This document shows positions 442 to 29,083 of a stretch of DNA of 29,083 nucleotides, in pieces (the first letter of the stretch is position 1; each line of letters opens with the position of its first letter). The DNA lies in the NCBI GenBank assembly GCA_000182565.2, contig KQ257456.1. One strand, 5' to 3'. A program made the translations under genes and the position numbers. The notes under the pieces are model-generated. The model was not told the DNA's origin. It saw only the letters and a list, made by a program, of their open reading frames with translations, and made no database searches. This DNA comes from Spizellomyces punctatus DAOM BR117. Its lineage: Eukaryota.

Positions 442-530
442 AACCTGTAGAGTACGTAGTGTAGAGGTGACAGAAACTGGCACTAGCTACTACACCAGGG
501 AATAAACCGGCGACAACCGGTTCGGAAAAG
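442..530 (-). ncRNA. Fanzor omegaRNA, divergent 'ghost'-type scaffold (530-457) plus flank-derived guide (from 456 downward, CGTACTCTACAGGTT...)
   Basis: Minus strand reads CTTTTCCGAACCGGTTGTCGCCGGTTTATTCCCTGGTGTAGTAGCTAGTGCCAGTTTCTGTCACCTCTACACTA. It aligns with the copy at 28496-28422. Stem AACCGG/CCGGTT is kept and stem GTGTAG/CTACAC covaries with the other copy. Guide length (~15 nt) is assumed from published SpuFz1 RNAs. Confidence 0.8.
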
Positions 531-1208
531 CTAACTAAGCTACTACTAGGCAATTATACACGCAATACGTAACGGTTGGTTCTAACCGGATAATTGCCCA
601 CCACCACACGCGGTCCCTACTAGGCCTTGATCTGGAACTCTTGATGGCATTGAAGCCAGACTCTTGCATCCAGGAGCGAATCGACTGGGCAGCGTCACAA
701 GCCAGAGGATGTTCAGTGACAAGGCTTGGAGACTAGAGAAAATGCATGTCAGAAGATGACCCGATGACAAGAAATAAAATGATGCAATCAGTACATACCA
801 ACCAAGCTCAACCAATGTGGCAGCATAATAGTAGGTTTTGTTATCGGATCCGATTGGTTGCCGCTGGTTCTGATCACGGTTGCTGTCGGGCGGTCGAGGT
901 CCTCGGCACCAGAGCAGTATTCTCATGATTGGACTGAGACTTGTTGGGTGGATGCTTTGAGTCGAGGATGGGTAAAGAGGAAAGAGGGAAGAGGGAGCAG
1001 GTCCCCCGTTTATAGACCTTTGGCATGCGCCTCACCGCAGTTTAAAAAAAAAGCTACATTAGCATGCCACACCGCAGTTTGGAGAACATTAGCATCCATG
1101 CCTCCTCACCGCTTTGAGCAATGATGGGGGTTCTGATTATGCGATATGATTAACCGGATTAATCCGGATAATAATGGGTCCTAGTGCCATTTTCAATCAC
1201 CTCCACAC
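459..1208 (-). mobile_element. Complete 750-bp non-autonomous Fanzor-associated TIR element (Spu-1-like 'ghost'/MITE) with TA target-site duplication
   Basis: 28-bp imperfect TIRs: 459-486 GTGTAGAGGTGACAGAAACTGGCACTAG vs reverse complement of 1181-1208 GTGTGGAGGTGATTGAAAATGGCACTAG (24/28). TA flanks both ends (457-458, 1209-1210). 1209-1212 TATG reads CATA on the minus strand, the known SpuFz1 TAM. An omegaRNA-like scaffold occupies the opposite end. No Fanzor ORF is recognisable inside. Confidence 0.92.
1023..1115. repeat. Three imperfect tandem copies of an (ACATTA)GCATG..CACCGC(AG)TTT unit inside the element
   Basis: 1023-1043 gcatgcgcctcaccgcagttt; 1056-1080 acattagcatgccacaccgcagttt; 1086-1115 acattagcatccatgcctcctcaccgcttt. 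Confidence 0.75.
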
Positions 1209-1499
1209 TATGATATTTTTGAATCCAAAAGGGCAGGAACGAATCAGGGCTTCTCCTCGAGCGGTAAGTGCTTAGTCACTGCTTACGTAACACACGACGC
1301 AACTTGTGACACTTTCATTTGAGGATTCTACAAAGCAAAATTCCCACGCTCCGGTTGACGGTCAGCGTTTTTCAAGAGCATTTTAAACATTTCTTTTTCA
1401 CGGTGGACGTTTTCGTCTGTTTTGGAGAGGGTTACAAACCCACTTGGCTCTTGGGAACTTACCTAGGCAGCATTGGTTGCGGCCGTTGCTTCCGTCAGG

Positions 1500-26078: not shown

Positions 26079-28164
26079 ATGGGAGAATCGTCGAATGCGC
26101 CGTCAAAACGCTTGGCGGTTCTCTATGCGTACAATGGATCGCTTTTCCAAGGCCTTGAGAGGTAGGCAGTTATATCGTATGAGAAGGAGCGCATGTGAAA
26201 TTGGATCACTGATGAGTATCTGGTCCTTTTCTAGGTCAAAGGGATTGAAAACCATCGAAGGTGTTTTGTTGAGCGCCATCGCAACAATTGTGGGTGAAGC
26301 GGACCCGACAAAGAGAGTTTCGGTAGGCTTTTCAATGCCGTTCGTTCAACACTGGAAAGTAACTGACGTTTTGGGAATCATTTTAGCTCGTCAACATTAG
26401 TCGTGCGTCTACAACAGAAGCTGGCGAACATGCTGCTCGCCAAGTTCTCTCGCTTGAAGTGGCGGCAAGCGAGAATGCGCCAATGCCAACCGCTGAATCT
26501 TTGACGCCTTTATTGCCGGACGGTATCAAGGTGTTCGATATTATCCAGCTGAACACGTCCTTCTCGGCGAGGAGGACCTGTGACACAAGGACATATGAAT
26601 ATCTTATCCCGGTACGTTTTGGAATGCTACTCATGAGTCACGGTTAATGCAGGCTGCTTATCGTATTTTTGGGGGTAGACGTATGTATTTGCACCTCCCC
26701 CGCCCGAAACGCATTACTCGTATCCTCCCCTGTCGGATACAGAATTTGAAGAGCTATGGCCCGTAAATGAAAATCTAGGTCCTCCTGGCGGTCTTTTCAA
26801 GACTATCAAGCGAGGCATGTCTCTCAAACGGAACAAGAGCCAGGCACGCTCCATGAGTCGCGCAAAAAGTGTGAACCGAAAGGCGAGCCGTAGGGATGCG
26901 TCTGGCCCGCCAGAAGACACTGTGGCGCCTCCTAAGCTCGAGCGCTCCATGTCCAGTCCTTCCCTCCCCTCTCCCCCACCATCTCCGTCGTCGCACCCAG
27001 TAGAGAAGAAGAGTGGTCTTCGCAAGTTTTTCGAAACGCTTACCCGCGGCCGCTCAAAGACAAGGAACGTGGAAGAAGAAGTGCCCGTCACAATTGCGCG
27101 TAGCAAGAGCAGAAAGGGGCAGGCTGGGGGAGTTCCATTGACAGCTTCAGGGTCAGCTCAGTCGTTTTCTAACGAGGTGTCCTACTCAACGTCTTCACCG
27201 GAGAAGGAAGATGATTTTGGCTTTATTGCCACACTCCGTCGGTCGGTATCCCGTAAATCTACTCGCAGAAGAGACCCCGAAATCGCCTCTTTGCGGGGAT
27301 CTGGGGAGGATGCTCTGGAGGAGGAGAAACCAGAGACTGCCGAACCGCAATACTTTGATCCTCTCCACTTCCCTCCGCCCAGCGAGGAGGAACTTAGCCT
27401 GACTCGCCAGTACCGAATCACCGAAGACCAAGTGAAAGCCATGAATCACATTTTGGCCATGTTCAATGGAACACACAACTGGCACAACTATATTCCTGGC
27501 GCCAAGTATGAAGATTCACGGTGCTACATGCGCATCATCAACATTGAATGCAGCGCCCCAGAGGTGCACTTTGGCATGGAATGGCTTCGAATTAAGGTCC
27601 AAGCCAAGGCTTTTGCGCGGTACCAGGTCCGCAAGATGATGGCAATGGCTATCATGGTCATTAGAACCAACACGCCACGAAGCATTGTTGCCAACTCATT
27701 TGGATATGCCAAGATTGAGATACCGGAGGCTCCTGCGATGGGATTGATTTTGGATGAGCCGCACTACGACACTTTCAACTCTGATTGCGAGAGGAGATCT
27801 GATCCAAATGGCATCCACTTTGCCAAACACCTGGTAATGTCCAACTGCTCAGAATCACTATTTACTACCATCTGAAAGCTAATTTTTTTTGTTTCAACAG
27901 CCCGCGGTAACGGAGTTCCGTCATCATTCAATTCACGACCCTGTGTACCGAGCCGAACTTGAGTCCATGAAATTCAACGAATGGGCACGAAACCTCGATG
28001 CTTATTCCTTCCTGTACACGTACTACCTCAATGAACGCGGGGTGATCAAACCAAACACCAACTATGTTACCAAGGCGGCCATTGAGCAGGAACGTGCCGC
28101 TGCTGAGGCAGCGAAGCAGGGTGTTGCTGATGGATTGTTTGTCAAAGAAGAGGCGAAAGCGTGA
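26079..28164 (+). CDS. Pus1/TruA-family pseudouridine synthase-like protein, predicted catalytically inactive, with large basic low-complexity insertion (~604 aa)
   Basis: Exons 26079-26161, 26235-26322, 26387-26611, 26679-27833 and 27901-28164. TruA-like motifs YNGSLFQG, TIEG, FSARRTCDTRTYEYLIP, GTHNWHNY, YQVRKMM and APAMGLIL. Motif II reads RASTTEAGEHAARQV instead of RAARTDKGVHA. Confidence 0.88.
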
Positions 28165-28406
28165 GCTCAGCAATTCTACATGATTTATTGACAGTTGTGT
28201 TAAGTCGTAGGTAATGGGTAGTATTGGAATAGTGTCGTTATAGGAGTTGTAGTAGTAGCGTTGTAAAGACAGGATGGAAGCCAATTTGGCATATTTTTGG
28301 GGAGCAAGGGCGGTGGCATTCAAAATTACTATTTGTATGATTTGTTTCGGTTCCTATCATTTTCTGTGTCTTAATACATTTTCATGTTTCTTTTGGGAAC
28401 TGGCTC

Positions 28407-28496
28407 TACAATTGGGGTTAGTAGTGCGGAGCCGGTGGGTATTGGCACTAGCACCCGCACCAGGGATTGAACCGCGCGACAACCGGTTCGGAAACC
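28407..28496 (-). ncRNA. Fanzor omegaRNA, SpuFz1-type 75-nt scaffold (28496-28422) plus flank-derived guide (from 28421 downward, CTAACCCCAATTGTA...)
   Basis: Minus strand reads GGTTTCCGAACCGGTTGTCGCGCGGTTCAATCCCTGGTGCGGGTGCTAGTGCCAATACCCACCGGCTCCGCACTA, nearly identical to the SpuFz1 omegaRNA scaffold as I recall it. It lies ~20 nt downstream of the Fanzor stop and ends at the element boundary. Stems GAACCG/CGGTTC and GTGCGG/CCGCAC. Confidence 0.9.
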
Positions 28497-29083
28497 TTAA
28501 TCTAACTAGTCTACGCTACGCTACCACTGGAACACCCCTCCTGAACACCTCTGGTCTACCGTGTCCATCCAACATTGATTGCATGATTGCCAGCATGTTG
28601 CAGGTTGACAGTGTATCTCGATTCCAGTAGCGCATTGTCCAGGCTTGCTGCAAACAGTTAGGGTTGGTACAACCCAGCAATCCATGGACTTTTTCAACCT
28701 TGCCTTCTTGTCATCACCAAGGTCTTGAATGAGGTCATGTTTTGAAGTCCTTTTCAAGGAAGTGTAACGACGAGGACGTCTTCGAGAGATCGCGAGTAAG
28801 CCCAAATCGGACGCGGGAAGCACGAATCGCGTGACCAACTCCACCGATTGGGTTACCGCGACCGAAAAAACCGGTTCGGAGAATGGCAATTGGCGCATTA
28901 GATTTCAGCGTGCCTCGTACAACCTGTGGAGGCCCGAGCCAGTGCGGAAAAGGAAGAGATCGGTACCGCCACCAATAAATCAGTTGCGGTGCAGCGACAC
29001 CCATTAGTTTAGTTTAGTTTAACAGTTTATCCAAGAATCTTGTATAAAAAGGATGTATTCAATAAAATAAGTCGGGGCAGAAG
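28424..29083 (-). mobile_element. Spu-1-type Fanzor element: omegaRNA end with TIR and TA; internally deleted/decayed; the other end is not visible in the window
   Basis: TA at 28422-28423, then terminal sequence GTGCGGAGCCGGTGGGTATTGGCACTAG (28424-28451), the omegaRNA scaffold and a Fanzor C-terminal relic. No matching TIR is seen before 29083, so the extent beyond ~28880 is uncertain. Confidence 0.82.
28516..28782 (-). pseudogene. Fanzor1 (TnpB-like RuvC nuclease) C-terminal pseudogene fragment
   Basis: A single frame reads KTSSSLHFLEKDFKT*PHSRPW**QEGKVEKVHGLLGCTNPNCLQQAWTMRYWNRDTLSTCNMLAIMQSMLDGHGRPEVFRRGVPVVA*. It includes the second Zn-binding pair CxxxxC and the RuvC-III WNRD motif of TnpB/Fanzor, and closely matches the SpuFz1 C-terminus as recalled. 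Internal stops at 28735-37, 28714-16 and 28711-13. Confidence 0.92.

Follow-up and report, generated by a model that had tools for sequence, protein, structure and literature searches.

Evidence for a CpG-decayed SPu-1 Fanzor1 element interrupted by a chromovirus LTR in Spizellomyces punctatus

The Fanzor locus described here is best explained, with a probability that we put at about 0.78, as a single SPu-1 Fanzor1 element that underwent CpG decay, was later hit by a Gypsy LTR retrotransposon and was then trimmed by a deletion. It lies at the end of the window, by which we mean the whole 29,083-nt stretch of S. punctatus DNA that was analysed (C7:248001-277083); comparisons were made within the 24.1-Mb assembly of 38 contigs (G000), with loci labelled L001-L140. 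As we reconstruct its history, a full-length SPu-1 Fanzor1 element inserted at a CATA in the interval that separates a pseudouridine-synthase gene from the following one (both TIRs, the CA and the TA are present) and would then have been silenced by CpG methylation; its ORF decayed by C-to-T changes until nine arginine codons read TGA. Much later, a chromodomain Ty3/Gypsy element, whose LTR has no differences from another copy, inserted near codon 555, most likely steered by its chromodomain to the silenced island. A deletion with 2 nt of microhomology, which is present in the assembly and unbridged by reads, would have reduced the Gypsy element to one LTR plus 69 nt and removed 68 nt of Fanzor. 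The scaffold would have stayed intact because SPu-1 ends generally escape CpG decay, and the omegaRNA, if it is still made, would carry a guide that directs another copy's nuclease only to an empty allele of its own site.

The element on both sides of an assembly break

A minus-strand frame at 28710-28519 matches the C-terminus of SpuFz1 (PDB 8gkh; E 9.3e-34, 64/64 query residues aligned). The Fanzor1 3′ piece that contains it spans 28516-28762 on the minus strand (residues 556-638 plus the stop), ends with a TAG at 28518-28516, has three in-frame TGA codons at 28737, 28716 and 28713, and is 81% identical to the intact copy L054 over residues 556-638. Our residue numbering is that of L054, a 638-aa copy with D, N, E and D at 383, 385, 541 and 606; D383, N385, E541 and D606 are the residues named for SpuFz1 in the sections of PMC10432273 available to us. 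Both the WNRD and the CxxxxC (CTNPNC) reported by the initial annotation are indeed kept in the frame that matches PDB 8gkh, as is D606. Neither of the two Fanzor pieces was assigned to a Pfam family. Next to this piece lies a 75-nt omegaRNA scaffold of the Fanzor type, not the ghost type (28422-28496, minus strand), in which 0/7 CpGs have decayed. It differs from L054 at 2/75 positions and from L056 and L063 at 1/75, and by 1-4 positions from 6 of the 15 TIR-to-TIR Fanzor copies in an ungapped comparison; its predicted fold has two stem-loops (-29.5 kcal/mol, z -1.69, with 14 of 200 shuffles equally good). The 30-nt right TIR of SPu-1 (28422-28451, minus strand) ends in TA and is identical to the right TIRs of L037, L054, L056 and L063. 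Host flank immediately outside the right end supplies the predicted 15-nt guide, CTAACCCCAATTG (28407-28421, minus strand), its length following the 14-15 nt given in PMC10432273. With a scaffold only 1-2/75 from other copies, the earlier description of an intact 75-nt scaffold, right TIR and TA beside this guide holds, and the structural match, the TIRs and the scaffold likewise bear out the assignment to SPu-1/SpuFz1 with an omegaRNA. A tRNA pseudouridine synthase gene (PF01416; window 26679-28163, plus strand), convergent with the omegaRNA, seems to stop about 260 nt short of the element's right end.

Fanzor sequence begins at 28762 and not at 28782 as first annotated, since 28763-28782 belongs to the end of an LTR and translates as KTSSS by chance. 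From 28763 to 29083, on the plus strand and opposite to Fanzor, the window contains the initial 321 nt of a Ty3/Gypsy chromovirus LTR of 600 nt (TG...CA) and ends inside it. The 79% resemblance of 28864-28882 to the scaffold start raised the possibility of a second scaffold or left end, which was dismissed because these positions fall within the LTR. A genome search with 28300-29083 gave at least 44 matches (40 of 167 candidates being scored), most of them covering only 28763-29083 and often paired 8,291 nt apart, and the 600-nt LTR has more than 30 copies in the genome. From the end of the window onward, C7 continues as a run of 6,313 N, right past which window 28399-29083 recurs at C7:283397-284082 with 685/686 identity, the sole difference being a G in a homopolymer that lies 10 nt from the end of the contig (and of the window). 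Because both stretches carry identical host flank, they do not represent two transpositions, and to judge from the sequence the 686-nt recurrence is most likely an unmerged contig overlap rather than a real duplication or two alleles. The Fanzor 5′ half, the left TIR and the CATA lie on the same contig as the window, past the N run; only the 3′ part falls in the window, since the assembly is broken within the LTR and the overlap appears again across the N run.

Past the N run, the insert is 669 nt long (C7:283761-284429) and consists of the LTR followed by a TGG primer-binding site and leader, 69 nt beyond the LTR. Fanzor residues 1-534 follow at C7:284430-285993 (minus strand), with six TGA stops and 78% identity to L054, and then the left TIR with CA in front at C7:286125-286154, which is the partner TIR with CATA that had been predicted to lie beyond the window. 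The whole SPu-1 element, C7:283420-286154, thus measures 2,735 nt including the 669-nt insert. Its left flank ends in CA and the element starts and ends with TA (CATA TAM); its left and right TIRs differ at 4/30 positions and are of different subtypes, whereas the two TIRs are identical in 8 of the 15 other copies. Residues 1-534 and 556-638 are each in one frame and about 97% of the ORF length is present. At the joint, which shows a TC microhomology, 68 nt are missing relative to the intact copy L057, and with them the E541 codon and the first CxxC. The codons for D383, N385 and D606 are retained and that for E541 is deleted; nine stops together with this deletion confirm that the nuclease is dead. 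The first CxxC was rightly reported as absent, its codons falling within the 68 nt missing at the LTR joint. The statement that everything upstream of it is unrecognisable is correct within the window but not beyond, where the 5′ part of the gene, the left TIR and the CATA are found on the same contig. Nor do only the last ~88 codons remain, as had been stated: about 82 are in the window, with residues 1-534 past the N run, and the gene has not been eroded away but is interrupted by the LTR and cut by the window edge.

The LTR is identical at 600/600 positions to a copy at C10:449714, and a family copy, L075, matches the 669-nt insert at 99.7% identity. In L075, a frame of 2,528 residues encodes RT, RNase H, integrase and C-terminal Chromo domains, all above Pfam cut-offs; genes for RT, RNase H, integrase and the chromodomain are absent at the Fanzor locus. 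Other family copies have 4-nt target duplications, for example at C17:446 kb, C8:488-497 kb and C22:318 kb, and no target-site duplication survives at this LTR insertion. Several smaller observations concern the same family. L075 (C22:45853-47055) contains a 603-nt tandem duplication that takes in the 3′ half of the LTR together with the primer site and the leader. At C10:450374-450973, a second remnant of LTR, primer site and short leader lies inside a Fanzor copy and resembles the window locus. In RNA run X22, the LTR in L076:457-912 has a depth of 300-470, its halves being covered on opposite strands.

The alternative that survives best, though we consider it unlikely, is that the assembly misrepresents the locus, which would then contain a longer or full-length Gypsy element, or two alleles of which one is deleted, or the halves of two SPu-1 copies that recombination or mis-assembly brought together at the retrotransposon. 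The 6,313-nt N run flanked by the 686-nt repeat and the different TIR subtypes on the left and right are both compatible with this, as are mismatched target duplications or mosaic flanks at other Gypsy-hit Fanzor loci (C9:1020/1035 kb, C11, C21, C5). However, a random join of two copies would be unlikely to leave just 68 nt of Fanzor missing between the halves, and CpG decay is alike in both halves (48/72 and 6/10), as expected of one element. A similar remnant of LTR, primer-binding site and short leader at C10 also argues for a genuine structure. The leader/Fanzor joint itself is spanned by no bridging contig or read among those listed, which leaves room for the misassembly explanation, and the loose ends listed there continue into normal retrotransposon leader, as expected from other copies; reads from 4 of 24 sequencing runs on L076:1-3400 did not span the joint but were not at odds with it either, and they yielded no RNA ends. 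The decayed 5′ half, on the other hand, is confirmed in part (L076:1459-1685) by low-depth contigs that match it with 0 differences.

Decay of the reading frame and sparing of the ends

All nine in-frame stops are TGA, at positions where the eight intact copies mostly have CGN (arginine). Among ORF CpGs conserved in the intact copies, 54/82 are now TG or CA, and at other sites only 104/1,404 positions have changed. CpG observed/expected is 0.47 in the left half versus 1.2 in the LTR, and this latter value, together with the identity to C10:449714, indicates that the LTR, a very young insertion, arrived after the ORF had decayed. CpG methylation is the probable cause of the decay, by analogy with the report that 5mC in Spizellomyces is confined to transposons (PMC12695648, in the part available to us); Spizellomyces TEs are also described as carrying H3K9me3/H3K27me3 in the accessible part of bioRxiv 2025.03.17.643675. 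The contrast between a decayed ORF and a near-pristine scaffold, to which the initial annotation drew attention, is real (CpGs decayed 54/82 versus 0/7, Fisher p 0.001).

This contrast would also be expected if the omegaRNA were kept by selection and donated its guide in trans to the nucleases of intact copies, an explanation that we regard as very unlikely. It recurs across copies: of 53 fragments examined, 32 had both regions, and in the nine that are heavily decayed, the window locus included, 4/61 scaffold CpGs have decayed versus 282/602 in the ORF. There is also a possible source of protein in the 8 intact ORFs among the 15 TIR-to-TIR copies, and the relevant passages of PMC10432273 state that SpuFz1 can work with the omegaRNAs of ghosts and discuss action in trans. 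The left end of the element provides a control. Across SPu-1 copies genome-wide (L036-L064 plus fragments), CpG decay is 2/89 in the first 150 nt and 1/93 in the last 50 nt, compared with 0.12-0.14 in the 300 nt before the last 50 nt and 0.23-0.32 in the interior, which suggests that methylation spares the edges of SPu-1 elements. Since the left end encodes no omegaRNA and is spared as much as the right, end sparing explains the scaffold without any guide function, and we reject the idea that the scaffold is conserved solely through selection on the omegaRNA. End sparing itself may reflect low methylation at the edges or selection on transposon ends, and going by the sequence patterns either would account for the scaffold. 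An intact scaffold beside a dead ORF would thereby be the default outcome of end-sparing CpG decay.

The guide points in the same direction. The genome search that had been proposed for trans targets consisting of CATA plus the guide found none in the assembly: with 10 guide bases after CATA there were 0 exact and 3 one-mismatch sites, and 144 sites with at most two mismatches versus 191 for the control. As a 14-nt sequence, the guide has no exact match apart from the two copies of its own locus; its 6 one-mismatch sites do not include any of the three CATA sites. The only natural target of the guide would thus appear to be the empty insertion allele of its own site. In RNA run X22, of which about 6 in 100 reads were read, the scaffold bins had depths of 11 and 22 with reads that are not locus-specific, and at a diagnostic scaffold base 18/29 minus-strand RNA reads carried the letter of other copies, the remainder not being locus-specific and no RNA ends being called. 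With no CATA+guide site and with the left end spared equally, guide donation in trans is left unsupported, and the preferred reading of a single decayed, LTR-interrupted element needs no such function.

Ghost elements and previously described systems

The initial annotation had placed the locus on a route from full element to ghost, and for this idea the window offers its own comparator, a 754-nt ghost Spu-1 with its own TIR type and its own guide (457-1212, minus strand; element 457-1210, CATA at 1212-1209). A further ghost, 84% identical to it, lies at C7:295721-296481. Compared with the 15 TIR-to-TIR Fanzor copies, the window ghost has DNA matches in the TIR and scaffold only, where ghost and Fanzor types are 76-79% and 82-90% identical, respectively. 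A tblastn search with the Fanzor protein against 23 ghosts (those of 30 fetched in which both TIRs were found by pattern) gave no significant match, the best E value being 0.54. According to the consulted part of PMC10432273, ghosts possess an IR and a scaffold type of their own, and their interior of ~550 nt is conserved; the window Fanzor locus has a Fanzor-type TIR and scaffold, an ORF and no ghost interior, and so is not a ghost. That the locus is an intermediate between full element and ghost is hardly credible, since a dead ORF next to an intact scaffold, and TIR-like ends and a scaffold common to ghosts, have to be set against ghost interiors unrelated to the Fanzor ORF in DNA or protein, a separate ghost TIR and scaffold type with its conserved ~550-nt interior (PMC10432273, same passages), and an element that still has about 97% of its ORF length. 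Ghosts are also CpG-decayed (122/595). We see in the intact scaffold beside a dead ORF no step toward a ghost.

SPu-1 was defined by Bao and Jurka in 2013 (PMC3627910, cited from its accessible part), and the window element agrees with SPu-1/SpuFz1 in being an element of ~2.1 kb with 30-33-nt TIRs, CA before the left TIR and a TA duplication, in having a 75-nt scaffold over the right TIR with the flank as guide, and in its 78-81% protein identity to L054. Unlike intact SPu-1, it is a pseudogene with nine stops from which E541 and the first CxxC have been deleted. It resembles ghost Spu-1 in carrying an omegaRNA scaffold and its own flank-derived guide without a working nuclease, but differs from it in having a Fanzor-type TIR and scaffold and a nearly whole ORF, to which the ghost interior is unrelated. 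Saito et al. 2023 reported 42 Fz loci, of which 19 were full-length, and found genes embedded in 11, among them Gypsy/Ty3 within the Fz gene, which they read as past Ty3 transposition (PMC10432273, as far as the consulted text goes). The window locus belongs to this already described class of Gypsy-interrupted Fanzor, although here a 669-nt LTR remnant takes the place of the retrotransposon genes of their embedded-gene loci. Neither Gypsy enrichment in Fanzor nor CpG decay of the ORFs is quantified or described in the parts of PMC10432273 and PMC3627910 available to us, and a literature search on Fanzor with Gypsy/Ty3 insertion or chromodomain, covering few subscription papers, found no paper that quantifies the preference. 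By itself the locus is of little weight, being one more broken SPu-1 copy; the insertion bias described below is of more interest.

Chromovirus insertions in Fanzor elements

Pattern searches gave 43 LTR 5′ ends and 72 3′ ends, of which 4/72 were not this LTR. From these we discarded the ends oriented toward the polypurine tract or primer site, a flank consisting entirely of N, the C7 end that is present in duplicate and an LTR in tandem; with the 5′ flanks of 15 variant LTRs added, this gave 76 host-side ends. Fanzor-element sequence adjoins 25 of these, retrotransposon interior 6 and a ghost 1, the remaining 44 adjoining none of these; the 44 include some other repeats and flanks inside Fanzor composites or near contig ends. 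After setting aside C9:774106, where the stretch concerned occurs only in the 5′ UTR of some copies, 24 ends in 14 Fanzor elements were left, with junctions at positions 119 to 1998 of 2,150 and in both orientations. This is a ~70-fold excess over the 0.45% of the genome taken up by Fanzor, a share that assumes ~50 Fanzor loci as a round figure (there are 57 protein matches, and 42 loci in the consulted part of PMC10432273); 40-60 random insertions would be expected to give 0.2-0.3. Ghosts, a target of similar total length (225 TIR matches, ~115 elements), received 1 insertion (14:1, p 0.002), and there are 2 clean nested insertions in the chromovirus family's own copies. A binomial p on ends is overstated, because an insertion contributes two ends that depend on each other, so the per-element count is to be preferred. 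A candidate second insertion at C4:456290 was rejected, the match being to leader and not to a new LTR.

CpG decay is greater in hit Fanzor copies (median 0.37, n=14) than in unhit ones (0.14, n=23; Mann-Whitney p 4e-5), a comparison that leaves out 5 composite loci and gives p 6e-5 with them. Insertions into genes will have been purged, and age, survival bias and methylation are inseparable in such data. The family is otherwise like chromoviruses as described in the part of PMC2864245 available to us, with the order RT-RNase H-integrase-chromodomain, TG...CA LTRs, a TGG primer-binding site, a polypurine tract and 4-nt target duplications (in family copies; lost at the window locus); unlike chromoviruses generally, its favoured target here is the Fanzor DNA transposon (24/76 host-side ends versus 1 in a ghost). 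Chromodomains are reported to direct integration to heterochromatin (same source, citing Gao et al. 2008), and targeting of silenced chromatin through the chromodomain is likeliest as the simplest cause of the Fanzor bias. A bolder proposal, which we hold possible but doubtful, is that this Gypsy family seeks Fanzor specifically, beyond any preference for heterochromatin. It would then be a hyperparasite with Fanzor as its main landing pad, knocking out nuclease ORFs while leaving omegaRNA ends intact and so shifting the guide:nuclease ratio. The grounds for proposing it are the ~70-fold excess itself, spread over positions and both orientations in 14 elements, against a single ghost insertion and two nestings in the family's own copies. 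If the chromovirus prefers silenced Fanzor, the system would offer a clean natural test of chromodomain targeting with ghosts as the internal control, and host methylation and a second transposon would jointly limit a eukaryotic RNA-guided nuclease.

Several further features of these insertions were observed. Variant LTRs (L096, L098, L099, L103, L105, L091, L131) share only positions 276-600 with the LTR described here, and both variants occur inside Fanzor copies. At C21:335288, C5:368981, C11:899446 and C3:1334413, a filler of 108-223 nt separates the LTR from Fanzor; parts of it are identical to short segments from the flanks of other insertions, and it may represent templated repair or assembly mosaics. 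C8:555992 and C8:600154 are two ends of one insertion, with the same 4-nt duplication at Fanzor position 809; they lie 44 kb apart in opposite orientation, suggesting an inversion or a scaffolding error. Finally, C9:618291-618935 and 623251-623895 are divergent Fanzor copies, 53% identical to the window copy, that probably belong to another SPu family.
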